A stretch of 24,000 nt of DNA from the NCBI GenBank assembly GCA_002898775.1, contig BEHK01000018.1, positions 7,615 to 31,614 on the forward strand, written 5' to 3'. The notes under the pieces were generated by a model. It was given only the letters and a program-made list of their open reading frames with translations, was not told the origin of the DNA and did no database searches. Every line of letters begins with the position of its first letter. Position 1 is the stretch's first letter. Below, one piece after another: positions 1,287-22,968 of this stretch. The position numbers were made by a program, and so were the translations under genes. Source of the stretch: a bacterium HR08. Lineage in GTDB: Bacteria; Acidobacteriota; Blastocatellia; HR10.

Positions 1287-2711
1287 TCATTCATACGCGC
1301 GCGCGATGTGGGCAGGGGCGTAGTAGTGGGCGAGGATCTGCTGGCAGGTGCGTCCCTGCCGGGCCATGACGGCGGCACCGATCTGGCATAGGCCGACGCC
1401 GTGTCCCCATCCCGCACCACGGAGGCGAAAGCGTCGAGGCACGCCGGCGCGTATGTCCTCGGGGAAGATGACGAAGGCTGAGCTGTAGAGATGCGTCCTG
1501 GAGAGCGCGCGTCGAATCATAAGCTCCTTGCCGAGGATCACGCGCTCTCGCTCCCCGACGATGCGAAGTCGCACGAGGCGTCCCGAGGAGCCTCGCTGCA
1601 AAGGCTCCAGTCGTCGAATGGCGCCGAGGTCCAGACCAAGCCGCGCCTGAAGGAGCGCTTGAAGCTCCTCCTGGCTGATGGTGTGCTCCCATCGGAAGAA
1701 GTCGCGCGTCGGTCGGTCCACCTCAGGGAGCGCACCCTCGAGCGCGCGCGCGTCGGTCGTGTGGCAATACGCAGGAGGAGTGCCCGTGATCCACGTGACG
1801 GCGTGCGCTTCGACCGTAAGGGGACGGGGGAAGTTCGGGGGCCATTCCGCTCCATCGAACCGCCCACCTCGCAGGTAGGGCACGTCACGATCCTCCCAGG
1901 CGCTCCGGTACTCCTCCGTCGCGCCCCCGCAGCATTTCGAGAAGCGCGCGTCCCCGATCTGCCCATGGAAGAGCAGAACCCATCCACGCGTCTCCATGAC
2001 GGCCCTCACCACGTCGCTGGTCCCGAGGGGCGCCAGACCGTAATAGCGTTGACAATGATCGTCGGCGCACACGTCGAACTCGCGATGAGTCGTCCGATCC
2101 GTCCAGTGGAGGATCTCGATCTCGCCCGTTGCGGTCTCCCGCGGCTCGGGTGAGGGCGCCGATGCCACATCCTCGATGCGACGCGTCAGATTCGCCAGCA
2201 GCCAGCTCCGCGAGATGATGGCGTGCGCTTTGAGAAATTCCCAAGGAGCGTGGGCGCTCATCTCCGAAGCGACGACGCTGGCGAGATAGGTCTCGACAGG
2301 CAGCGCGTTGATGACCATCAGTCGCGGCGCGGCGTCCGGCGCGGAAGGGGAGAGGCGAATCGCCAGCGTCCCCGCATACCGATGCGCTTCCCTTCGCTCC
2401 CAGTGGAACCCTTTTCCCACGGGGACATCGCAGAGCGCGAATGCGGTCGTCGCCGGGTTCGCCGGGATGAGGACGAGCGTCGGTGCGATCTCCACAAGGC
2501 GTTGCTGGGCATCGCGGATCTCGAGACCAGCGGGATGAAGGCGTGGGATCGCTCGATATTCGCCCGGCGGGAAGGCCTTCCCCTCAGGCGTTCGGAATTC
2601 GCCCTCCAACGTGAAGTCTGCCCGCTCGACGTCGGTCAGAAGGCCGACGGAGATCGAAGGCTCGGTTGGGAAGAGAAGCCTTTCTTCCGAAGCCGCAGCT
2701 CGCTCGCGCAT
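1287..2711 (-). CDS. SpoIID/LytB-domain protein (peptidoglycan lytic transglycosylase / amidase-enhancer family)
   Basis: 474-aa ORF. The C-terminal GAGWGHGVGLCQIGAAVMARQG and the central FHGQIGDARFSKCCGGATE are hallmark SpoIID/LytB motifs. Confidence 0.85.
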   Translation of the reverse strand: MRERAAASEERLLFPTEPSISVGLLTDVERADFTLEGEFRTPEGKAFPPGEYRAIPRLHPAGLEIRDAQQRLVEIAPTLVLIPANPATTAFALCDVPVGKGFHWERREAHRYAGTLAIRLSPSAPDAAPRLMVINALPVETYLASVVASEMSAHAPWEFLKAHAIISRSWLLANLTRRIEDVASAPSPEPRETATGEIEILHWTDRTTHREFDVCADDHCQRYYGLAPLGTSDVVRAVMETRGWVLLFHGQIGDARFSKCCGGATEEYRSAWEDRDVPYLRGGRFDGAEWPPNFPRPLTVEAHAVTWITGTPPAYCHTTDARALEGALPEVDRPTRDFFRWEHTISQEELQALLQARLGLDLGAIRRLEPLQRGSSGRLVRLRIVGERERVILGKELMIRRALSRTHLYSSAFVIFPEDIRAGVPRRFRLRGAGWGHGVGLCQIGAAVMARQGRTCQQILAHYYAPAHIARAYE

Positions 2712-2729
2712 GTCACCGAAGGGAGGGGG

Positions 2730-2769
2730 CGAAGCCCGAGAGGCGGTCGGCTCGCCGCATCGGGCTTCG
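2730..2769 (-). terminator. Perfect 10-bp stem hairpin (CGAAGCCCGA, 20-nt loop, TCGGGCTTCG) 13 nt downstream of the tpx stop; possible terminator or processing site
   Basis: Inverted repeat read directly at 2730-2739 and 2760-2769. There is no U-tract, so it is not a canonical intrinsic terminator. Confidence 0.35.
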
Positions 2770-2781
2770 AGCCCACGCGTG

Positions 2782-3303
<522 letters not shown>

Positions 3304-3333
3304 AGCTCATCCTCCTTGATCGGTTGTAGAAAA

Positions 3334-3346
3334 GGGCAATTTTACC
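3334..3346 (-). promoter_or_regulatory. Left arm of a 13-bp inverted repeat; read on the minus strand it is GGTAAAATTGCCC with an extended -10-like TGGTAAAAT, 30 nt upstream of the tpx ATG
   Basis: Exact reverse complement of 3527-3539. It contains a TAAAAT hexamer preceded by TGG. Confidence 0.5.
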
Positions 3347-3506
3347 AGCCCGATCGCATGACGGGAAGCCACGCGGTGCGATCGCAGAACTCCCCTCACC
3401 CCATGGCGGCCTATGGAAGATGGCCGTCTGCTGCAACACAGGCGAGGTCTCCGAAACTCGAAGTCGAAGGATTAGGAACCCCCCCTCTGGCGACAGCGCT
3501 TTGGCC

Positions 3507-3539
3507 TTGACACGCCGTGGGGAGGGGGTAAAATTGCCC
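3507..3539 (+). promoter_or_regulatory. Sigma70-type promoter TTGACA-N16-TAAAAT for the Cys-rich secreted protein gene, including the right arm (3527-3539, GGTAAAATTGCCC) of the 13-bp inverted repeat
   Basis: TTGACA at 3507-3512 and TAAAAT at 3529-3534. AAGGAGG at 3544-3550 precedes the ATG at 3559. Confidence 0.6.
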
Positions 3540-3558
3540 CTGAAAGGAGGTGAGAGCG

Positions 3559-4089
3559 ATGAGGATTCCGTGGGTTTTCCTCTGGGGACTCCTGGCTCTC
3601 CTTCTGGTTCCTCCTGCTCCTTCGCACCTCGCTTTGGAGACAGATGGGGAGGAAGGGAGCTTTGGTGTTCACATTCTCCTATCCGGGCGAGAGGCGTTAC
3701 TCATCCCGGCGTCGGGGAGAATATTTGGCGTTGTCCGCGTATCGGGCCGGGAGAATCTCTCGGCGCTCAAGGTCGTTCCCGAGGTCAACGGGGATACCGT
3801 GACGATTCGCCTCTCTCCGCTCTTCACTCGGATCGAAGAAGCATTGACCTGCGAGCAGCTCTGGCAGTTTCATTCGGAGCCGACGGTGACGATCTCCGGG
3901 CGAGTGGGGGACACGCTTCGCGTCTCCGGCTTCGAGCGTTTCGCTCTTCCCGAGCTAGACGTGCGAATCGTCCCATTGAACGGAGCGAGCCTCCAGGATT
4001 GCTGCGAATGTGGGAAGTTGGTGTGTTGCCCGAACTCGGGACAGTGTTTAGGCTGTGGGGGCTACGGACAGTGCTGCCGTCGCCCGTGA
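3559..4089 (+). CDS. Hypothetical secreted protein with a Cys-rich C-terminal tail (9 Cys in the last 30 residues)
   Basis: ATG at 3559 lies 8 nt after AAGGAGG. The N-terminus MRIPWVFLWGLLALLLVPPAPSHLA looks like a Sec signal peptide. The tail is DCCECGKLVCCPNSGQCLGCGGYGQCCRRP (4000-4086). A strong promoter lies upstream. I recognise no family. Confidence 0.7.
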   Translation: MRIPWVFLWGLLALLLVPPAPSHLALETDGEEGSFGVHILLSGREALLIPASGRIFGVVRVSGRENLSALKVVPEVNGDTVTIRLSPLFTRIEEALTCEQLWQFHSEPTVTISGRVGDTLRVSGFERFALPELDVRIVPLNGASLQDCCECGKLVCCPNSGQCLGCGGYGQCCRRP

Positions 4090-4112
4090 CCTGTGTTTTG
4101 GAGATTCTCGCC

Positions 4113-4655
4113 TCAGGCAACTTGCGCTCGCGGGTGATCGAATCCCGATCGGAATGGGACGGGCACAATTCTCCTGAGTCGCGAAAGGAGCGATCCAGAC
4201 ATGTGGTCGTGCGCCCCATTCACCAAGTGCCACTTCGGTTGCAGTGTGCGCCAGCCGGCGACCGGGGAGGTGTAGGCGAGCGCTTTTGACATTCCCCTGT
4301 TTCGCGTCAGACCCGTGTGAACGGGCGATTGAATCTCGCCCGGGGTGAGCCGAAAGTGAGCTCCAGGATAGGCCGAATTCATCGCCCGCAAGTCCTCGAA
4401 GGGAGGTGATCCGTCCGCGTGGTTCCGCACGTCGTTCATTCTCATGACGCCACTGCCGTTCGCCTCCATGTGGGCCGCCCCCTCCCGCGAGCTTTGGGAA
4501 ATTGATGGTGGGACCTCGTCGCTCACCCCAAGCTGGAGGTAGTCCTGAATTTCTTTGGGGGTGAGGGCCGCGCCTCCATCCCTGGAGTCCCGCTCGGATG
4601 TCTCCCGGACGTGCGGATAGTCGCCGTTGACAGAGATGGGACTCGGATATACCAT
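4113..4655 (-). CDS. Hypothetical protein (orphan ORF, weak call)
   Basis: Open frame with ATG at 4655 (MVYPSPISVNGDYPH...). Third-position GC is roughly 70% by eye, lower than the neighbours. No convincing RBS, no recognisable motif, signal peptide or TM segment. The longer 4775 start would run through the 4661-4690 hairpin. Confidence 0.3.
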   Translation of the reverse strand: MVYPSPISVNGDYPHVRETSERDSRDGGAALTPKEIQDYLQLGVSDEVPPSISQSSREGAAHMEANGSGVMRMNDVRNHADGSPPFEDLRAMNSAYPGAHFRLTPGEIQSPVHTGLTRNRGMSKALAYTSPVAGWRTLQPKWHLVNGAHDHMSGSLLSRLRRIVPVPFRSGFDHPRAQVA

Positions 4656-4660
4656 AGCCT

Positions 4661-4690
4661 CGTCGCGTGAAGGGTTCTCTTCACGCGATG
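4661..4690. promoter_or_regulatory. Strong hairpin or palindromic site: CGCGTGAAG, loop GGTTCT, CTTCACGCG (9 perfect bp, extendable to 12 with one G-U) in the divergent region between the orphan ORF and the giant secreted-protein gene
   Basis: Read directly: 4664-4672 pairs with 4679-4687. It lies 9 nt upstream of the minus-strand ATG at 4655 and about 130 nt upstream of the plus-strand ATG at 4818. Confidence 0.45.
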
Positions 4691-4817
4691 GGTGAAAAAG
4701 GAGCGAACGGCGTGATTCAGAGCGCGACGCGAGGGAAGACGTCAGTGAGGCGATTTCATCTGGTCGGCATCCCACGCGATCCTGGAGGTTCCGTGGAGGC
4801 TGTGGAGAGGAGGAGCT

Positions 4818-7800
4818 ATGAGGCGCTTGAGACTGATCGGCATGGGAGCGGTCGTTGTCAGTGTGGTGCTTTCATTCATCTCGCGGGAGAGCACGGCGGG
4901 ATCCCACCGCGCATCGTCTTTGGAAGTGGGGGACTCATCCTTCCTTCGCCTTGATCCCCGCGCTCGGCCTCGGGTGAATTTTCGCCTCGTGGAGGAAGGG
5001 GTACTCACCGCACAGGGGGATGGGTGTTCGGGAGACGTTTCGCTCCTTAGTGTGATCTTCGATGAAGAACGTCGCGCCTGGCCACAAGGAGCGGCGCTCG
5101 GGGATTTCAACAGAGATGGGGTGACCGATCTCTTCCTCTTTGAGCGAGGGGAGGGGCGGGCCGTTCTGGCGGTGCGGTTGTCGTCGGCGGGGGGGCGGTT
5201 TTGTCCGGGATGGGCGTTTGATCTCGGATCGGGCGAACCTATTGGGCTCACCGTTGAGGATGTCACAGGGGACGGGCATTCAGATATCGTGATCGCACTG
5301 GCCGATCCCTCGCGCCTCGTCCTTCTGGTTGGAAATGGACGCGGCGGGATCGCCGATCGGAGGGAGATCGCGCTGGAGGAATCGGTGCGGGCGATCGCCG
5401 TCGGAGATGTCACCGGCGACGGGCGGAACGATCTGATTCTGGCGCTCGCTTCGCCGATGCGCGTGGCGCTTCTGGCCGGGCGTGATGATGGACGCTTCGA
5501 GCGCGCGGATGTGCTCCGGGTGGAGGGGGAGGGAGGTCGTGCGGAGCCCGTGAGGCTGCGTGTGGCCGATCTCGATCGAGACGGACACGCCGACGTTGTC
5601 CTCGCTTCGAGCCTGGGGCTCATCTGGGCGCGCGGAGCTGTGGGGGGATTCTCGCCGCCGACGGTCCTGCCGCTGGAGGCGATGCCGACCGATCTCGTCC
5701 TGGAGGATCTTGATGGAGATGGGCGCGCCGACGTGGTCCTCAGCGATAGCGCCGGAGCGGTGCAGCTCTTTCGTGGAACGATGAAAGGATTCGTTCCGCA
5801 CGGGCGATGGTTCGTCGGAGGGCCAATATCGGCGCTTGCTGCCGGCCACTTCGATGCCGACGGATATCGGGATATGGCTGTGGCGCTCGCCGATCGTGGG
5901 CGCATCGTCCTGCTGATGGGCGAGGGCGGGGGCGGATTTGGAGAGGCGTTCCATCTGGATGTGCGCGATCCGGTGGCGGTGCTCTTGTCGGCGCGGATGA
6001 ATCGGGATGCGCTCGACGATCTGCTCATTGGCGAGCGGCGCCCAGGGGGATGGCTCCTGGCGGTCACGGAGGCCCCGCGCATTGTGGTGACGACGACAGC
6101 CGATACGATCCTGGAGGATGGTCGCGTCTCGTTGCGCGAAGCGATTCTCGCCGCTAACGGCGTGCCGCCCAATCGGGATGTCGCGGGACAGCGAGGGGGG
6201 CCCGATGTGATCGCCTTCAATATTCCGGAATCCGAGCGCCGGGATGGTGTCTTCACGATCGAAGTGGATGGCGCATTAGGCCCGCTGCCTCGATTGGTGG
6301 ATGGAGGGACGACGATTGATGGGACGACGCAACCGGGATGGAGCGGTCGGCCCATCATCGTGCTCAGCGGGCGGCGAGCCGGTCTGGCCGATGGGCTCGT
6401 GATCACCTCCTCGCTCAACGTCATTGCCGGATTGGTCATCAACGGGTTTGAAGGGAGCGGCGTGAAGATCATCGTAGATCCGCCGGAGTCGGGCACGGCG
6501 ACGGGGAACATCGTGCGTGGATGCTATATCGGCACGGATCCCACGGGACAACGCAGTGTGGGCAACGGTCTCTACGGCGTGCTGATCACGCGGAACCGCA
6601 CGCAGGCGAATCTCATCGGAGGCACGACGCCGGCCGATCGGAACGTCATCTCGGGTAATCGCGGCAACGGGATCGAGCTGGACTTCCCCACATTCGGGAA
6701 TTTCGTCTTGGGAAATTACATCGGGACGACGGCCGATGGGTTGAGCGCGTTGCCTAATGGTGGAGCAGGGATTTTCATCAGCGGGGCGCGAGATAACGTG
6801 ATCGGCGGACGCGAGCCGGGAGCGGGGAATGTGATCTCGGGGAATTCTGGAAGCGGGATTCAAATCGTCGGCACCTTCGGGAATCAAGTCCAAGGGAATT
6901 GGATCGGCACCGATCGGACCGGGACGCGAGCGCTGCCGAACGGAGGAGATGGGGTGGCGCTCGTCGGGGGGGCACATGGGACTCTCATCGGAGGGACTGC
7001 CGAGGCGGCGCGCAACGTGATCTCCGGCAATGCGCAATATGGCGTTCGTCTGGCGGATGCCTTCTCGAATCAGATCGCGGGGAACATCCTCGGTCTGGAT
7101 TCGACGGGGACGCGAGCTGTGCCCAATGGCGCCAGTGGGATTTTGGTGACGGCGGGCGCGCGGGATAACCTCATCGGAGGGCTCGAGGCCTCCAGCGGCA
7201 ACATCATTGCTGGGAATGCGGGCGATGGAATCACGCTCGCGCGCGGGGCGAGCAACAATCACATTGTGGGGAACCTCATTGGGACGGCGGATCGCGAGGG
7301 AACGCGCCGTCTGCCCAATGGGGGGAACGGGATCGCCATCCTCGGCGCGCGGGATACGACCATAGGGGGGGCGACGCTCACGGCGGCGAATACGATCGCC
7401 TATAACGCTCGGGCGGGCATCGTGATTCTGGATGGGGAAGAGACGCCGAGCCGAGGGAATCGCATCGGCTGCAACGCCTTTTTCAGCAATGAGGGATTGG
7501 GCATTGATCTCGGCGGTGATGGGGTGACGCCCAACGATGTGGGGGACACCGATGATGGGCCGAATGCCCTCATGAATTTCCCGGTCGTGCGCGAGGTGCG
7601 CGAGATGTCCGGCGGCGTCCTCCTGCGAGGGCGTATAGATACGATCAATCCGGCGGCGGCGCGGGTGGACGTTTACATAGCCGATCCTGATCCTACGGGT
7701 TTTGGAGAAGGGCGGAGGTGCGCGGCTCAAGGGATCGCGCCGAACCCGGACGGGACGTTCGAAGTCTTCCTTCCGGGGCTCTCGGTTCGGGATCCGGTGA

Positions 7801-8831
7801 CGTTGGTGGCGACCGATGAGGTGGGGAATACGTCGGAGTTCTCTCGTGTGGCTCCTCCGGTAGATTCGACGCCGCCGAGCGTGCGCGTGATCAGCCCCAA
7901 TGGCGGCGAGTTCGTCCTGGCGGGAACGTTGTTGCCGATCGCGTGGGAGTCTTCGGATGATATGGGGATCTTGCTTCACGAAGTCGCGCTCTCGCTCGAC
8001 AGCGGGCGGACGTGCTCGATCCTGCTCGGGCGCGTGAGCGGCGAGAAGCGCTCGTTTGTGTGGGAGGTCCCGGAAGGCATGCTCTCCTCCACCGCGCGCA
8101 TCTGCGTCACGGCGCGCGACTTCTCCGACAACGCGGCGACCGATACGAGCGATGGGGACTTCCAGATCGGGCGCAGCGATCGCGAGGAGCCAGTTGTGCG
8201 CGTGCTGCGGCCCAATGGGGGCGAGGTCGCCCGAGCGGGAGAGCCGTTTGAGATCGCATGGGAGGCGAGCGATAACGTCGGCTTGTCCGGTTGCGATCTC
8301 TTCGTCTCTACAGACGGTGGGGCATCCTTCACGCCCCTGGCGATGCGCATCCCGGCGGACGTGCGTTCCTTTTCCTGGAACGTCCCCGAGGGGCTCTCCA
8401 CGACGCGCGGGCGCGTCCTCGTGCGGTGTCGCGACCTGGCCGGGAATGTCGGAGAGGATCGAAGCGATGCGGACTTCGCGATAGACGGTGCGCCGCCGAC
8501 CATTGGCTCAGTGATCGTCTTCGACGTGAATGGCCCCAGTCGCTTCTTCGTCGCGCGGCGTCCGTTGACGATCGCGTGGGAGGCTTCCGATGACGTCGGG
8601 ATCGTGCGCCATCGGATCGAGTTCTCACGCGACGATGGCCTGACGTTCGAGCCGCTGCGGGATGCCCAAGGGAACATCGTCGGGGACAACATTCCGGGCG
8701 ATGCTCGACAGTTCACGTGGACCGTTCCGGGAACGGTCTTCACGCGCACCGGGCGATTCCGCGTCACGGCGATTGATCGTGCCGGGCGGACCAGCTCAGC
8801 CTTGAGCGAACGCATTTCGATCGTCAATTGA
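4818..8831 (+). CDS. Large secreted multidomain protein: signal peptide, seven FG-GAP/VCBS-like repeats (putative beta-propeller), CSLREA-like segment with right-handed parallel beta-helix (PbH1) repeats, and three tandem ~100-aa Ig-like C-terminal domains
   Basis: 1337-aa ORF. ATG at 4818 follows GGAGGAG. N-terminus MRRLRLIGMGAVVVSVVLSFIS. See the repeat features below. The segment GDGVTPNDVGDTDDGPNALMNFPVV is typical of CSLREA / beta-helix surface proteins. Confidence 0.9.
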   Translation: MRRLRLIGMGAVVVSVVLSFISRESTAGSHRASSLEVGDSSFLRLDPRARPRVNFRLVEEGVLTAQGDGCSGDVSLLSVIFDEERRAWPQGAALGDFNRDGVTDLFLFERGEGRAVLAVRLSSAGGRFCPGWAFDLGSGEPIGLTVEDVTGDGHSDIVIALADPSRLVLLVGNGRGGIADRREIALEESVRAIAVGDVTGDGRNDLILALASPMRVALLAGRDDGRFERADVLRVEGEGGRAEPVRLRVADLDRDGHADVVLASSLGLIWARGAVGGFSPPTVLPLEAMPTDLVLEDLDGDGRADVVLSDSAGAVQLFRGTMKGFVPHGRWFVGGPISALAAGHFDADGYRDMAVALADRGRIVLLMGEGGGGFGEAFHLDVRDPVAVLLSARMNRDALDDLLIGERRPGGWLLAVTEAPRIVVTTTADTILEDGRVSLREAILAANGVPPNRDVAGQRGGPDVIAFNIPESERRDGVFTIEVDGALGPLPRLVDGGTTIDGTTQPGWSGRPIIVLSGRRAGLADGLVITSSLNVIAGLVINGFEGSGVKIIVDPPESGTATGNIVRGCYIGTDPTGQRSVGNGLYGVLITRNRTQANLIGGTTPADRNVISGNRGNGIELDFPTFGNFVLGNYIGTTADGLSALPNGGAGIFISGARDNVIGGREPGAGNVISGNSGSGIQIVGTFGNQVQGNWIGTDRTGTRALPNGGDGVALVGGAHGTLIGGTAEAARNVISGNAQYGVRLADAFSNQIAGNILGLDSTGTRAVPNGASGILVTAGARDNLIGGLEASSGNIIAGNAGDGITLARGASNNHIVGNLIGTADREGTRRLPNGGNGIAILGARDTTIGGATLTAANTIAYNARAGIVILDGEETPSRGNRIGCNAFFSNEGLGIDLGGDGVTPNDVGDTDDGPNALMNFPVVREVREMSGGVLLRGRIDTINPAAARVDVYIADPDPTGFGEGRRCAAQGIAPNPDGTFEVFLPGLSVRDPVTLVATDEVGNTSEFSRVAPPVDSTPPSVRVISPNGGEFVLAGTLLPIAWESSDDMGILLHEVALSLDSGRTCSILLGRVSGEKRSFVWEVPEGMLSSTARICVTARDFSDNAATDTSDGDFQIGRSDREEPVVRVLRPNGGEVARAGEPFEIAWEASDNVGLSGCDLFVSTDGGASFTPLAMRIPADVRSFSWNVPEGLSTTRGRVLVRCRDLAGNVGEDRSDADFAIDGAPPTIGSVIVFDVNGPSRFFVARRPLTIAWEASDDVGIVRHRIEFSRDDGLTFEPLRDAQGNIVGDNIPGDARQFTWTVPGTVFTRTGRFRVTAIDRAGRTSSALSERISIVN
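5100..6035 (+). repeat. Seven FG-GAP/VCBS-type repeats inside the giant ORF
   Basis: Recurring D-x-[DNT]-x-D-G-x-x-D-hydrophobic motifs: DFNRDGVTDLFL, DVTGDGHSDIVIA, DVTGDGRNDLILA, DLDRDGHADVVLA, DLDGDGRADVVLS, HFDADGYRDMAVA, MNRDALDDLLIG. Confidence 0.8.
6300..7520 (+). repeat. Parallel beta-helix (PbH1-like) repeat region inside the giant ORF
   Basis: Recurring ~22-25-aa units: NVISGNRGNGIEL, NVISGNSGSGIQIV, NVISGNAQYGVRL, NIIAGNAGDGITL, each followed by GN.IG(T)D..G....PNGG. It is preceded by VSLREAILAANG (CSLREA-like). Confidence 0.8.
7872..8828 (+). repeat. Three tandem ~100-aa domains (approx. 7872-8185, 8186-8487, 8488-8828) at the C-terminus of the giant ORF
   Basis: Shared pattern V(R/I)V..PNGGE......(P).IAWE(A/S)SD(D/N)(M/V)G.......S.D(G/S)G..(F)........R(S/Q)F.W.VP......R..V...D..GN...D.SD..F.I. 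Confidence 0.75.
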
Positions 8832-13451: not shown

Positions 13452-13886
13452 ACGAAGGCCGCGCGTCACCCCCCGTTGGGTAGGAGTTCCACAAACCAGG
13501 CGGGCGAGCCCTCCTTCCCTCACTCCGATCGCCGCGACATGTCGCCACCTGCTTGATTCCCATCAGGACCGTGCTGATCACCCTCTCGTGTAGGCGTCAG
13601 GTGGGCAGTGGGACTCTTCACCACAGGTTGTCAAGGTGCCATTTCCGGTTCCACCGTGAGGGACGTGAGCTTGACCCTCAAGAGTGGGGTCATTACCGGA
13701 TCGTCATGGGACGGGGAAGACGGCATTGATCAAGTGAGCGCTCAGCTTGATTCCGCGCGATCGAGGAAGCAACGGCGTTGAAAAGGATTCGAGGGCTCGC
13801 GCGTGGCTGAGTTCACGAGATGCCGGCCGATGTGTCCCTGGCGCGCTTCTCCGAAGTGGACGTGCCATTGCTCTTGGGCGAGCGAT

Positions 13887-13916
13887 TTGGAGACCGTGTA
13901 GCGCGCCGGCTAAAAT
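13887..13916 (+). promoter_or_regulatory. Candidate sigma70-type promoter for rtcA: TTGGAG-N18-TAAAAT
   Basis: TTGGAG at 13887-13892 and TAAAAT at 13911-13916, the same -10 hexamer as the two promoters at 3334-3539. It sits about 90 nt upstream of the rtcA ATG. Confidence 0.35.
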
Positions 13917-14004
13917 AGATATCGATCGGCCGCCGTGTGACAGAGGCGAGGGCGGATGGGAGGTTCCATCCGCATCGCGGTGTTGGCACGGGGGGAGCGG
14001 GGCT

Positions 14005-15084
14005 ATGGTCGTGCGCATAGATGGATCGGTCGGCGAGGGAGGGGGGCAAATCCTGCGGACGAGTTTGGCGCTGGCGGCCTTGCTCTCGCGCGAGGTGGAG
14101 ATCGTCAACATCCGTCGTGGGCGCAAAGTCCCCGGCCTGCAGCCGCAGCATCTGACGGCCGTGCGCGCGATTCGGGACATCACGCGCGGGCGCACGCTCG
14201 GGGACGAATTGGGGTCGGAATTGCTCATCTTCAGGCCGGGGACCTGCGAAGGTGGCGTCTACGAATTTGACGTGAGCAAGATTCGGGCCAGTGCCGGCTC
14301 GGTGAGCTTGATCTTCCAGACCGTCTTGCCCGCTCTGCTCTTCGCTCCGCGCCCCACGCATTTGATCTTGAAAGGCGGCACGCATGTCCCCTTCAGCCCT
14401 CCGACGACGTACTTGGAGAGGGTTTTTCTGCCCGTCTTGCGCCGGATGGGGGGGCGCGCGAGCCTGAAGACGGTTCGTTGGGGATGGTATCCTCAGGGCG
14501 GGGGGATCGTCGAAGCCGACGTTGAGCCCGTGGAGCGGCTGTCGGCCGTGGAGCTGACCCGGCGGGAGGAGTTGGTCAAGATCGAGGGGTTGGCCGTCGT
14601 CTCTAATCTCCCGCTTTCGATCGCCGAGCGTTTCTGTCGGCGCTTGCTGCAGCGGTTGGCTCACTCCGAGCTGGTGGCCGAGGTGGAATTATTGCAGGCG
14701 CCGGCTTCGGGAAAAGGAGCGGGGTTGTTCGCCTTCGCGTATTATGGGGATGTGGTGGCGGGATTCGGCGCTCTGGGCGAGGTCGGGAAACGCGCCGAGA
14801 CGGTTGCCGATGAGGTCCATCGCGCGTTCATGGCGCATCATCGTTCCGGCAAAGTCGTGGACAAGCATTTGGCGGATCAGTTGCTGCTCTACATGGCGCT
14901 GGCCGAGGGACGCTCGACCATAACCGTCTCTGAGGTCACCCCTCACTTGGTGACCAATGTCTGGGTCATCGAGCAATTCTTGCCGGTGAAGTTCGAGGTG
15001 GATGGAGCCGTGGGGGGACCTGGTGTGGTCTCCGTCGAGGGCGTGGGAGTTCGCCCCGGCGCGACGTCCCCCGAGAGTTCCTGA
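14005..15084 (+). CDS. rtcA: RNA 3'-terminal phosphate cyclase
   Basis: The start MVVRIDGSVGEGGGQILRTSLALAALL aligns with the E. coli RtcA N-terminus (DGAQGEGGGQILRSALSLS). Also PGLQPQHLTAVRA and the catalytic-His region VDKHLADQLLLYMALA. The 13747-14004 upstream extension in the ORF track is Arg-rich and not protein-like. Confidence 0.9.
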   Translation: MVVRIDGSVGEGGGQILRTSLALAALLSREVEIVNIRRGRKVPGLQPQHLTAVRAIRDITRGRTLGDELGSELLIFRPGTCEGGVYEFDVSKIRASAGSVSLIFQTVLPALLFAPRPTHLILKGGTHVPFSPPTTYLERVFLPVLRRMGGRASLKTVRWGWYPQGGGIVEADVEPVERLSAVELTRREELVKIEGLAVVSNLPLSIAERFCRRLLQRLAHSELVAEVELLQAPASGKGAGLFAFAYYGDVVAGFGALGEVGKRAETVADEVHRAFMAHHRSGKVVDKHLADQLLLYMALAEGRSTITVSEVTPHLVTNVWVIEQFLPVKFEVDGAVGGPGVVSVEGVGVRPGATSPESS

Positions 15085-16940: not shown

Positions 16941-18873
<1,933 letters not shown>

Positions 18874-19192: not shown

Positions 19193-19292
19193 GACCGAGG
19201 CGGGACATACGCGGACGAAGGTTCGGACCACGATTCTCTCTCTCCCCCTGTTCTGCCCCATATGGGGGGAGATCGTGACCGGGAGGGGGCCT

Positions 19293-21056
19293 ATGGAGAA
19301 GCTCACGATCGGCCGTCTGCGGGATACGCTCTCGGGGCGGCGCGTCTTCGTGCGCATAGATGGGGACGTGCCGCGGCGGGAGGCGACGGGGGAGATCGCC
19401 GATGAGTTCAAGCTGCAGCAGGTGGTACCGACGCTGCGGTTGCTGATCGAGGCGGGAGCCCGCGTCGTCATCGGCACGCATTGGGGACAGCCGGGCGGGC
19501 GCGTGGTGGAAGCGTGGCGCGTGGATCCTCTCGCCGAGCGCTTGAGCCACATCTTGGGACGGCCCGTTCGGAAAGCGAATGAGTGCGTGGGGCGTCAGAT
19601 CGAACGGCTCGTGGATGAGCTGAAGCCGGGCGAGGTCCTGATGTTGGAGAATCTTCGCTTCCACGCGGAGGAGGATCTGGACGATGCGGCCTTCGCCCGT
19701 CAGTTGGCCGATCTGGCCGACGTCTATTGCAACGATGCCTTTGGACTGGCCCATCGTGGTCAGGCCTCGACCGTGGGCATCACGCGCTATGTGACTCCAG
19801 CGGCCGCCGGATTGCTGATGGAGCGCGAGCTGCTGATGTTGGAGGCCGTGTTGAAGAGTCCCCAGAAGCCGTTCCTGGCGGTCGTCGCGGGGGCGCGACT
19901 GTCGGAGAAATTGCCGGTCTTGGAGAACCTGCTCGCCCGCGTGGATCGCCTGTTCATCGGCGGCGCGCTCTGTTTCACCTTCCTCAAGGCGCAAGGGTAT
20001 GAGGTCGGGCATTCCCCGGTGGAGACCGCGTTTCTGAAGCTCGCCGAGCATTTCCTGGCGCGGGCCGAGCAGGTGCTCGGGAGCCGAGGGGAGATCTATC
20101 CGACCGGACTCGTCTTCCCTTCGGATTTCGTCGTCGTGGATGCGGAGGCCTTGGAGCAGGCGCAGGGAGATCCGGAGAAGATCGCCGCGCTCCCGCGCCA
20201 TGTCGTCGTGGCGTCGGAGATCCCGGCGTATGCCGTGGCCGTGGACATCGGGCCGATGACGGTCCATCATCTGGTGGAGTTGTTTGATTGGGCGCGCACG
20301 ATTTTTTGGAACGGGCCGCTCGGGCGGTGGGAAGACGCCCCGTTCGCAGAGGGGACGCGCGCCCTGGCTCAGTATGTGACCGAGCGCGTTCCGGCGGAGA
20401 AGAAGGACATCATCGTCTGCGGCGACAGCTTGACCCAAGCCATTCGTCAATTCGGCCTCCCCGTGGAGCGGATTCGCCATCTGAGCACGGGCGGCGAATC
20501 GGCGCTGAAGGTTCTGGCTGGGATGCCGCTGCCGGCGGTCGCGGCCTTGAGCGAGAGCGCGCAACCGGAACGGGCTGAGCGCGCGCGTCGCATTCTCATC
20601 CCTGTGGATGGATCGCCCAATGCCCGCTTGGCCGTCGAGCGGGTGAGTCAGTTGCTGGATGCCGCGCGGGCGGAGATCACGTTGCTGTATGTCGCGCCAC
20701 TTCCTCGGATCGAGCGCAGCAGCTATGTCAGCCCGGAGCGAGAGGCCGAGTGGCGAGCCGCGCATCAGTTGGAGGCCGAACGCATCTTCGCCGAAGCCAA
20801 CGCCGAGCTCGCGCGACGTGGGTTGACGTCGCATCGGCAGCTCATGGTCATGGGCGATCCGGCCGAGGAGATCCTGAAGCTCGCGGATCAGATGGGCGCG
20901 GATCTCATCGTCATGGGGGCGCGCGGACGCAGTGGGATCTTCCGCTTCCTCATGGGCAGCGTCAGTCGCAAGGTCCTCGATCAGGCCAGGTGTCCCGTCC
21001 TTTTGGTGCGCGTGCCGGATGAGGCGTTGGTGAAATCGGGCTTGATGGAAGGATGA
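19293..21056 (+). CDS. Phosphoglycerate kinase-like domain (approx. 19293-20550) fused in-frame to a C-terminal universal stress protein domain (approx. 20584-21030)
   Basis: ATG at 19293 follows GGGAGGGGG. PGK-like blocks: LENLRF, DAFGLAHRGQAS, DRLFIGGALCFTFLKAQG, DIGPMT, IFWNGPLGRWE, HLSTGGESALKVLAG.PLPAVAAL. The USP part is RRILIPVDGSPNA...LIVMGARGRSGIFRFLMGSVSRKVLDQARCPVLLV. It is a single uninterrupted ORF. Confidence 0.85.
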   Translation: MEKLTIGRLRDTLSGRRVFVRIDGDVPRREATGEIADEFKLQQVVPTLRLLIEAGARVVIGTHWGQPGGRVVEAWRVDPLAERLSHILGRPVRKANECVGRQIERLVDELKPGEVLMLENLRFHAEEDLDDAAFARQLADLADVYCNDAFGLAHRGQASTVGITRYVTPAAAGLLMERELLMLEAVLKSPQKPFLAVVAGARLSEKLPVLENLLARVDRLFIGGALCFTFLKAQGYEVGHSPVETAFLKLAEHFLARAEQVLGSRGEIYPTGLVFPSDFVVVDAEALEQAQGDPEKIAALPRHVVVASEIPAYAVAVDIGPMTVHHLVELFDWARTIFWNGPLGRWEDAPFAEGTRALAQYVTERVPAEKKDIIVCGDSLTQAIRQFGLPVERIRHLSTGGESALKVLAGMPLPAVAALSESAQPERAERARRILIPVDGSPNARLAVERVSQLLDAARAEITLLYVAPLPRIERSSYVSPEREAEWRAAHQLEAERIFAEANAELARRGLTSHRQLMVMGDPAEEILKLADQMGADLIVMGARGRSGIFRFLMGSVSRKVLDQARCPVLLVRVPDEALVKSGLMEG

Positions 21057-21057
21057 G

Positions 21058-22119
21058 TCAGGGGAGGACGCGCACGCGCCCTTCGGCTCCGGCGGTGATC
21101 TCCCCGATGACGGACGCCGCGAGCGCGCCGTTCTCGCGCAGCGCTTCGCAGAGCGCTTCCGTCCGCTCCGACGCGACGGCGATCAGAACCCCACCCGACG
21201 TTTGCGCATCGCAGAGCACAAGTTGCGCGTCTTCGGAGACGTCCGGCGCCCAGTCCACAAACGGGGCGAGATAGGCGTGATTGGCGAGCGTGCCGCCGGG
21301 CACGATGCGTTCGGCGACCAGCTCCCACGTCCCCGTGAGCACCGGAACGCGCGAGAGCCAGATCGTGGCGCTCACGCCGCTGGCGACGAGCAGATTGCGC
21401 AAGTGGCCGAGCAGTCCGTATCCGGTGACATCCGTCGCGGCGTGCACACCGATCTGCCGCATGGCGCGCGCGGCCGCGCGGTTGAGCGTCGTCATGACGC
21501 GGATGGCTTCGGCTTCGATCTCCGGTGAGACGCGCTCGCGCTTGATGCCCGTTGTGATGATCCCCAGACCGAGCGGTTTCGTCAGGATCAGGTGATCGCC
21601 CGGACGCGCGCCCGAGTTCGGGATGATCTCCGCCGGGCGCGCGAGGCCGAGCACGGCCAAGCCGTATTTCGGCTCCAGGTCGTCCACCGTATGTCCGCCG
21701 AGGATCACGACGCCCGCTTCGCGCGCCTTGTCGCTGCCGCCGCGCAAGATCTCGCTCAAAAGGCGGAGGGGGAGTCGCTTCGCCGGGAACCCTACGAGAT
21801 TCAGCGCCACGAGCGGCTCGACGCCCTTGGCATAGAGGTCGCTGAGGGCATTGGCGACGGCGATCTGTCCGAACGCATAGGGGTCGTCCACAATGGGCGT
21901 GAAGAAATCCGTAGTGAGGACGAGCGCCATCTCCTCATTGAGGACATAAACGCCCACATCATCGGAGGTCGCCACTCCGATGAGCACATGCGGGTCATCC
22001 ACCGGTGCCAGTGTGCTCAGGACCTCGACCAGGTCCTTCTGGCTGAGCTTGCACGCTCAACCGGCACCGTGGCTCAGTTGCGTCAGCCGAATGCGTTCGG
22101 TCTCCCCCATATCGCTCAT
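21058..22119 (-). CDS. selD: Selenide, water dikinase (selenophosphate synthetase) with in-frame TGA = selenocysteine at codon 21 (minus-strand TGA at 22059-22057); alternative start ATG at 22110
   Basis: The ORF track starts at 22002 (MDDPHVLIGVATSDD...). The same frame continues upstream through a single TGA as MSDMGETERIRLTQLSHGAG-U-ACKLSQKDLVEVLSTLAPV. This aligns with the E. coli SelD N-terminus [21 protein letters not shown], placing U at catalytic Cys17. The rest is canonical SelD (TTDFFTPIVDDPYAFGQIAVANALSDLYAKG, ATDVTGYGLLGHL, CDAQTSGG). Confidence 0.9.
22015..22048 (-). promoter_or_regulatory. SECIS-like stem-loop downstream of the selD UGA
   Basis: Minus-strand RNA after the UGA reads GCGUGCAA, then GCUC-AGCCAGA-AGGACCU-GGUCG-AGGUCCU-GAGC. 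That gives a 7-bp upper stem, a 5-nt G/U-containing apical loop 27-31 nt after the UGA, and a 4-bp lower stem. This is within the spacing range described for bacterial SECIS elements. Confidence 0.65.
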
Positions 22120-22146
22120 CCCCTGGCCCACGGGGAACGGGTCATA

Positions 22147-22968
22147 CTACGGCAGATCATGAGGCCGCGTCAACGCCGCGTCCGACGGGCATCGTTCGAT
22201 GGTCGGGGCGACCGCCGTCAGCAGCCGATAGCGACCCAGCCAATCGTTCATCCGAATGCGCATGAGGTCGAGCGCCATGCGCCAGGCATCGCGCAAGAGG
22301 CGGACCTTCGTCCCCTCTGCATGAGCCCAGAGGACTGGCGTCTCGCGAAGGCGCAAGCCGCACTTTCGCGCCAGATAGAGGATCTCCACATCGAATCCGA
22401 AGCCGCGAATCCGCTGGTGCTGAAAGATGGGGAGCAGGGGCGCGCGCCGATACGCCTTGAAGCCGCATTGTGTGTCCTTGAACGGAAGGCCGGTGAGCAG
22501 GCGCACGAGGAGATTGAAGATCCGCCCGGCCCACTGCCGCGCTCGCGTGGGGGGTTTTTGGATGAAGCGGCGATCGAGACCGCGCGAGCCAAAGGCGACG
22601 TCCGCACCTTCGACCGCGATGAGGTGGAGCAACCGTTCGACCTCCGCGATGGGAGCCGAGAGATCGGCGTCGGTGAAGAGGACGATCTCGCCGCGCGCGT
22701 CCAGGAAGCCTCGGCGAACGCTGTAGCCTTTTCCGAAGTTGCGCTCATTCCGTAACAGGCGCACGCTCACGTGTTCGCTCCGCCACGCATCGGCGAAGGC
22801 TTGGACCAGACGAGCCGTCTCGTCATGAGAACCATCGTCCACGACGATCACTTCGCTCGGGAAGGGACGGTGCTCCAGATAGTGAGTGATCTCTCGAAGC
22901 GAGCGCTCGATCCGATGGGCCTCATCGAAGGCCGGAACGATGACGGAGAGATAGGGCGCTCCTCCCAT
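22147..22968 (-). CDS. Family 2 glycosyltransferase, polyprenyl/dolichyl-phosphate hexosyltransferase-like (ALG5/DPM1-like); alternative TTG start at 22980
   Basis: LSVIVPAFDEAHRIERSL, VIVVDDGSHDETA, NFGKGYSVRRGFLDARGEIVLFTDADLS (DxD). Its stop lies 27 nt upstream of the selD ATG on the same strand. Confidence 0.85.
   Translation of the reverse strand: MGGAPYLSVIVPAFDEAHRIERSLREITHYLEHRPFPSEVIVVDDGSHDETARLVQAFADAWRSEHVSVRLLRNERNFGKGYSVRRGFLDARGEIVLFTDADLSAPIAEVERLLHLIAVEGADVAFGSRGLDRRFIQKPPTRARQWAGRIFNLLVRLLTGLPFKDTQCGFKAYRRAPLLPIFQHQRIRGFGFDVEILYLARKCGLRLRETPVLWAHAEGTKVRLLRDAWRMALDLMRIRMNDWLGRYRLLTAVAPTIERCPSDAALTRPHDLP

Follow-up and report, generated by a model that had tools for sequence, protein, structure and literature searches.

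In Escherichia coli SelD, the loop that runs from the Sec/Cys17 position to Lys20 is essential for catalysis; its Cys17 is encoded by UGC and involves neither recoding nor a SECIS. The SelD proteins of Aquifex and Haemophilus are native selenoproteins, with UGA in the N-terminal glycine-rich loop. In the SECIS of E. coli fdhF, the loop lies at +22 to +25, the upper stem carries the bulged U that is a feature of this type, and a GU in the apical loop is the contact for SelB. Bacterial SECIS elements are stem-loops placed right after the Sec UGA (PMC12013277, PMC9312934). Many organisms have SelD in the form of a selenoprotein (PMC12013277); no bacterial selenoprotein families are more widespread than FdhA and SelD, of which SelD ranks second (PMC9312934, PMC5029168). 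Acidobacteria are listed with three selenoprotein families (PMC1794560, Table 2). The original prediction for the gene described here had presented Sec-containing SelD as an already known phenomenon, in agreement with these sources (PMC9312934, PMC5029168, PMC12013277).

Here we analyse a selD gene with an in-frame UGA, located in a stretch of 24,000 nucleotides of DNA (the window). Judging from the sequence, we consider it highly probable (roughly 0.9) that the UGA is decoded as selenocysteine (Sec) and that this Sec is the catalytic N-terminal residue of SelD. Four observations carry this reading, which was also that of the original prediction: the family of the product, the position of the UGA and its conservation as a TGA/Cys column (55 versus 25 genes), the coding constraint on both sides of it, including the codons upstream, and a hairpin that covaries and is restricted to TGA-type genes.

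The nearest genomic relatives, at 95% amino-acid identity, are ‘bacterium HR10’ (BEHM01000015.1) and another metagenome-assembled genome (MAG), followed by MAGs labelled Acidobacteriota/Blastocatellia at 80–85% identity. On the minus strand, one reading frame extends from ATG 22119 or ATG 22110 to the stop at 21060–21058, and the TGA at 22059–22057 is its single internal stop, at exactly the coordinates first proposed (Table 1). The mechanical ORF list begins the gene only at GTG 22002 (314 aa), as had also been reported. With regard to the start, the frame of the original prediction is correct, and its choice of ATG 22119 (353 aa, U at residue 21) is revised here. This ATG is an alternative in-frame start three codons 5′ of ATG 22110, the latter being the only start conserved in three of the five closest relatives (L003–L005). 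Because these three share the ATG equivalent to 22110 and have none at the position of 22119, and because in L003 a TGA interrupts the frame 7 codons 5′ of the shared ATG, the selD start is most likely ATG 22110, which would give a protein of 350 aa with Sec at residue 18. At the place equivalent to the Shine-Dalgarno-like AGGGGA of the window, L003 has GGAGG and L005 has AGGAG.

Table 1. Features of the selD locus, in window coordinates
Feature	Position	Strand	Description
Full-length selD CDS, predicted	21058..22110	−	350 codons and stop, predicted Sec at codon 18; SelD equivalog models, AIRS and AIRS_C
In-frame TGA, proposed selenocysteine codon	22057..22059	−	Position of E. coli SelD Cys17, by alignment to 3U0O
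17 codons (MGETERIRLTQLSHGAG) before the TGA, dropped by ORF calling	22060..22110	−	Constraint and SelD profile
Mechanically called ORF, GTG start	21058..22002	−	314 aa, lacking the catalytic N-terminal loop
Shine-Dalgarno-like AGGGGA	22119..22124	−	8 nt 5′ of ATG 22110; direct reading of the sequence
SECIS-like upper stem-loop	22019..22037	−	AGGACCU 22037–22031, loop GGUCG 22030–22026, AGGUCCU 22025–22019
Whole stem-loop as originally predicted	22015..22048	−	Adds lower stem GCUC 22048–22045 / GAGC 22018–22015, which is unsupported
Sigma-70-like promoter, candidate	22144..22173	−	TTGACG-N18-TAGTAT; 1 site versus 0.1 expected in shuffles; conserved

The product is unambiguously a full-length SelD by family. 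For the profile searches the TGA was read as Cys/Sec, and the resulting conceptual full-length product scores well above the cutoffs of both NCBIfam SelD equivalog models: 373.7 bits for TIGR00476 (cutoff 125; profile positions 1–309 of 311) and 363.1 bits for NF002098 (cutoff 299; positions 3–344 of 347). That the upstream codons might fail to match the SelD N-terminus had been raised as a possible objection; the SelD profile match in fact begins at position 1, within the part lost to ORF calling. The AIRS domain (PF00586) is matched at residues 50–156 with 95 bits, and AIRS_C (PF02769) at residues 169–348 with 77.2 bits.

The solved structure that matches best is that of E. coli SelD (3U0O), with residues 6–347 of the query aligned to residues 5–343 of the chain (E = 1e-77). 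The two proteins are alignable over their full length and share the AIRS/AIRS_C architecture and the motif SHGAG-x-x-CK. In the alignment (RIRLTQLSHGAG-U-ACK), the TGA falls on Cys17, and both Cys19 and Lys20 are conserved, as anticipated for the TGA and the lysine. The glycine-rich loop thus reads SHGAG-[U]-ACK, against SHGAGCGCK in 3U0O, and is present only if the 17 codons before the TGA are included. Unlike the E. coli gene, the window’s selD has UGA at this position. Aquifex SelD (2YYE/2ZOD) is the next structure match (E = 1e-63), aligned over the same N-terminal region. Aquifex aeolicus SelD (2YYE/2ZOD, 2ZAU) and Haemophilus influenzae SelD are the same enzyme with UGA in the same loop; the crystallised Aquifex protein has C-A-A-K where the window’s SelD has U-A-C-K, and the lineage differs, the window belonging to a thermophilic HR10-type Acidobacteriota/Blastocatellia MAG clade. 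The gene is best described as a functional selD, encoding a putative selenide, water dikinase (selenophosphate synthetase) predicted to make selenophosphate from selenide in an ATP-dependent reaction.

Across 80 SelD loci of other genomes, the codon equivalent to Cys17 is TGA in 55, TGC in 23, and TGT in 2. The TGA-type genes come from the window’s own clade, Desulfosporosinus and relatives, Dehalococcoidia, other Chloroflexota, Rokubacteria, and others, whereas the 25 Cys-type loci are almost entirely from Paenibacillus. The five relatives at 80–95% identity share the same TGA. The match to the SelD profile runs across the UGA, and the protein is conserved on either side of it. Of the 15 confident genes in the window, 12 end in TGA as their ordinary stop codon, which rules out a global reassignment of UGA.

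The 17 codons preceding the TGA are conserved across the window and L001–L005, its five closest relatives, and their differences are mostly synonymous third-position changes, with synonymous swaps of the type GGT/GGG, ACG/ACA, CAA/CAG, ATT/ATC, CGG/CGT and CTG/TTG. Sequence conservation breaks off abruptly 5′ of ATG 22110 in the same six sequences. This pattern supports purifying selection on the codons upstream of the TGA. Further upstream lies the only promoter-like match in the region (22173–22144); its TTGACG and TAGNAT boxes are kept at identical spacing in the five relatives, and the spacer sequence between them diverges. The putative −10 box takes in the TAG stop codon of the glycosyltransferase gene that lies upstream, which places the candidate promoter inside the 3′ end of that gene. 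That a promoter, a ribosome-binding site and a start codon are all conserved 5′ of the TGA speaks for expression of the stretch.

Downstream of the UGA, the original prediction placed a stem-loop at 22015–22048. Its coordinates are confirmed, its 7-bp upper stem is supported by consensus folding and covariation, and its lower stem is not conserved. The first loop base of the hairpin lies 30 nt from the U of the UGA. Single-sequence folding, one of the checks originally suggested, recovers the 7-bp stem, with z = −3.0 for a 58-nt stretch. The 34-nt hairpin alone has z = −1.55, with 12 of 200 shuffles folding as well, and such folding is unexceptional for a window of 64% GC. Because single-sequence folding is only modestly unusual, the argument is carried by the comparative evidence.

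For covariation, we used 21 TGA-type genes with the hairpin at the window’s register (the window, its five closest relatives, Dehalococcoidia and a few others), aligned without gaps over 54 nt from the TGA. The RNAalifold consensus of this set consists of the 7-bp upper stem, columns 23–29 with 35–41, and nothing else. An 8-pair structure (23–30 with 34–41) is formed by standard pairs in 94.7% of alignment cells, a percentage inflated by the selection of these genes for folding in this way, which does not inflate the compensatory changes. Slid registers give 18–51% pairing, and none of 500 shuffles matches the observed pairing score. Pair 24–40 changes on both sides (GC to AU), pair 27–37 is compensatory in four distinct sequences (CG to UA), and pair 30–34 is compensatory in three (GC to CG). 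Two other foldings were rejected because changes in L003–L005 lack compensation. They are the lower stem GCUC/GAGC, where position 15 changes from C to G and which is missing from the RNAalifold consensus, and the minimum-free-energy fold that pairs the UGA itself (GGUUGAGC/GCUCAGCC), where positions 15 and 18 change. Rfam returned nothing relevant for the whole window at gathering thresholds or for 21900–22200 at E up to 10, a negative that carries no information because the database lacks a bacterial SECIS model applicable here.

Since the DLxxVL peptide motif is partly self-complementary at the DNA level, TGA-type genes were compared with Cys-type genes. With the window included, a perfect 7-bp helix at one of two registers is found in 48 of 56 TGA-type genes and in none of the 25 Cys-type genes, and a helix of at least 6 bp in 54 of 56 versus 1 of 25, a contrast that is not phylogenetically independent because the Cys-type set is almost all Paenibacillus. 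The mean local folding energy is −15.8 kcal/mol for the TGA type versus −11.8 kcal/mol for the Cys type. Register 1 (columns 23–29 with 35–41) is that of the window; register 2 (columns 29–35 with 41–47), 6 nt away, is used in Desulfosporosinus, many Chloroflexota and Rokubacteria. The loci that entered the comparison of registers and of selA neighbourhoods include L006–L031, L045, L046 and L049. A selD SECIS that appears to sit at two registers 6 nt apart in different phyla is the only mildly new point here. With the peptide still alignable, it would mean that the signal for recoding has undergone turnover within coding sequence that is itself conserved.

Like the bacterial SECIS described by the fdhF type and by the bSECISearch consensus, the window’s hairpin lies in the coding sequence right 3′ of the UGA, and its apical loop, GGUCG, starts with G and contains GU. 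Unlike the fdhF element, its stem is a perfect 7 bp and its loop is at +30. The absence of the bulged U and the position of the loop make the hairpin SECIS-like but not of the fdhF subtype.

A mechanism consistent with these features can be proposed. Transcription would start from the conserved promoter-like site at 22173–22144, and translation from ATG 22110, so that the ribosome would reach the UGA at codon 18. The hairpin, about 20 nt downstream with its 7-bp stem and GGUCG loop, would act as the bacterial SECIS and recruit SelB-GTP-Sec-tRNA(Sec). Sec would then be inserted, and reading would continue to the real stop at 21058 to give the 350-aa enzyme with the motif HGAG-U-A-C-K. We infer that SelB binds, that Sec rather than Cys is inserted, and that the genome carries selA, selB and selC at other places, the last being a logical consequence also drawn in the original prediction.

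The neighbourhood of selD was searched for this machinery. ARAGORN found no tRNA in the 24-kb window and no tRNA-Sec within 10 kb on either side of selD in the five closest relatives. In tblastn searches of the window and the 80 loci, with E. coli SelA and SelB taken from L081 as queries, neither protein had a match in the window or in the 10 kb flanking selD on each side in the five nearest relatives. Among the 80 loci, selA adjoins selD only in Desulfosporosinus-type Firmicutes, where it lies immediately upstream, and selB was found only in L056. A tRNA-SeC was seen by ARAGORN only in L049, a distant Clostridia locus. The Desulfosporosinus-type selA neighbours and the L049 tRNA are uninformative on the window’s organism. 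Other than selD, the genes identified in the window include no known selenium gene. The small methyltransferase ORF at 18265–18873 was examined as a second TGA-interrupted gene because only the C-terminal part of Pfam models matched; this candidate was rejected, as the ORF starts at the SAM-binding motif and the frame upstream lies inside the enolase gene.

Three other readings of the TGA and its hairpin were weighed. A pseudogene or a true N-terminal truncation, with the TGA as a nonsense mutation or an assembly error and the product made from GTG 22002, is how ORF callers and deposited annotations treat the gene, and the lack of Sec machinery in the window would fit it. Such a product would lose the Sec/Cys17–Lys20 loop, however, and the same TGA recurs in 55 independent assemblies across phyla, five relatives at 80–95% identity among them, with the 17 upstream codons conserved through mostly synonymous changes and the start codon and the promoter conserved as well. 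These comparative data effectively refute truncation, to which we attach next to no probability. Just as hard to credit is a hairpin that is a by-product of the codons for KDLVEVL, in which GAC CUG and GUC CUG are self-complementary, with some other element driving read-through. Its 5-bp core (ACCUG/CAGGU) does form in some Cys-type Paenibacillus genes, and the single-sequence z of the hairpin is only −1.55, but the outer three pairs are confined to TGA-type genes (0/25 Cys-type genes at 7 bp, 1/25 at 6 bp). One of the compensatory pairs couples the synonymous change GAC to GAU with GUC to AUC, a Val-to-Ile replacement, and the 54 nt after the UGA contain no alternative conserved structure by RNAalifold in the 21 genes.

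The remaining reading keeps both the UGA and the SECIS and changes only the amino acid: the UGA would be recoded as cysteine by a Cys-charged SelC*-type tRNA (tRNA-ReC) in a SECIS-dependent manner, and the protein would be an ordinary Cys-SelD. Insertion of Sec and of Cys look alike in sequence alone, tRNA-ReC reads UGA given a SECIS (2018 work, as described in PMC13582414), and no tRNA-Sec was seen in the window or in the selD loci of the five closest relatives. Against this, nothing in the data points to a tRNA-ReC, which the same paper reports for about 17% of Sec-type genomes in a single survey, beside a canonical SelC in the cases described (PMC13582414); moreover, UGA at SelD Cys17 is a classical Sec site (PMC1794560, PMC12013277). 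We thus regard cysteine insertion as very improbable. Only slightly less improbable is the broader case in which the UGA and hairpin are read by a non-canonical system (for instance, of the Cys-inserting tRNA-ReC type) or in which Sec-SelD is the sole selenoprotein sustaining the Sec trait. Decoding of the UGA as Sec remains the preferred reading.

The genes identified in the window encode an LD-carboxypeptidase, SpoIID, a 1337-aa FG-GAP/beta-helix protein, RecF, GyrB, QueC, RtcA, a universal stress protein (Usp), a Cys/Met PLP enzyme, enolase, the small methyltransferase, a PGK-Usp fusion, SelD, a family-2 glycosyltransferase and PlsY. The PGK-Usp fusion (19275–21056, plus strand) is one 593-aa ORF combining phosphoglycerate kinase (PF00162, residues 19–416) with a C-terminal universal stress protein domain (PF00582, residues 438–579), and it is a single uninterrupted ORF in all five closest relatives (84–98% identity). 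It converges on selD, and the two genes end in the palindrome TGAgTCA (21054–21060), with TGA stops on opposite strands one base apart. A terminator-like hairpin between genes was not found in 20900–22400. Directly upstream of recF-gyrB, the 1337-aa ORF (4818–8831, plus strand) contains FG-GAP repeats, a NosD/right-handed beta-helix region and a bacterial Ig domain. The ORFs at 2611–3510 (plus), 3420–4289 (plus) and 4113–4775 (minus) gave no Pfam match at E up to 1e-5, and the last gave none at 0.01 either. The ORF for RtcA (RNA 3′-phosphate cyclase; 13747–15084, plus strand) has about 95 residues before its Pfam match, and its TTG start is probably over-extended.

The expectation that standard annotation would truncate this selD is borne out by the deposited proteins. 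The twelve closest database proteins cover only 87–93% of the full-length query, and the entries include ‘Selenide, water dikinase’ of bacterium HR10 (309 aa) and of bacterium HR08 (309 aa) and ‘selenophosphate synthase’ of an uncultured Acidobacteriota bacterium (317 aa). The database proteins are truncated because gene callers take the UGA for a stop and choose an internal GTG or TTG as the start. The deposited SelD proteins of this clade (HR10, HR08, uncultured Acidobacteriota and related MAGs) are consequently fragments without the catalytic loop, so that selenium use may be overlooked or mis-scored in automated metabolic reconstructions. No new mechanism is involved, since few bacterial selenoproteins are as widespread as Sec-SelD (PMC9312934, PMC5029168). 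The presence of a Sec-SelD predicts a complete Sec-decoding machinery and at least one selenoprotein in this hot-spring Acidobacteriota clade. The main value of the finding lies in annotation, namely a corrected gene model and a predicted Sec machinery for an uncultured clade of thermophilic Acidobacteriota.
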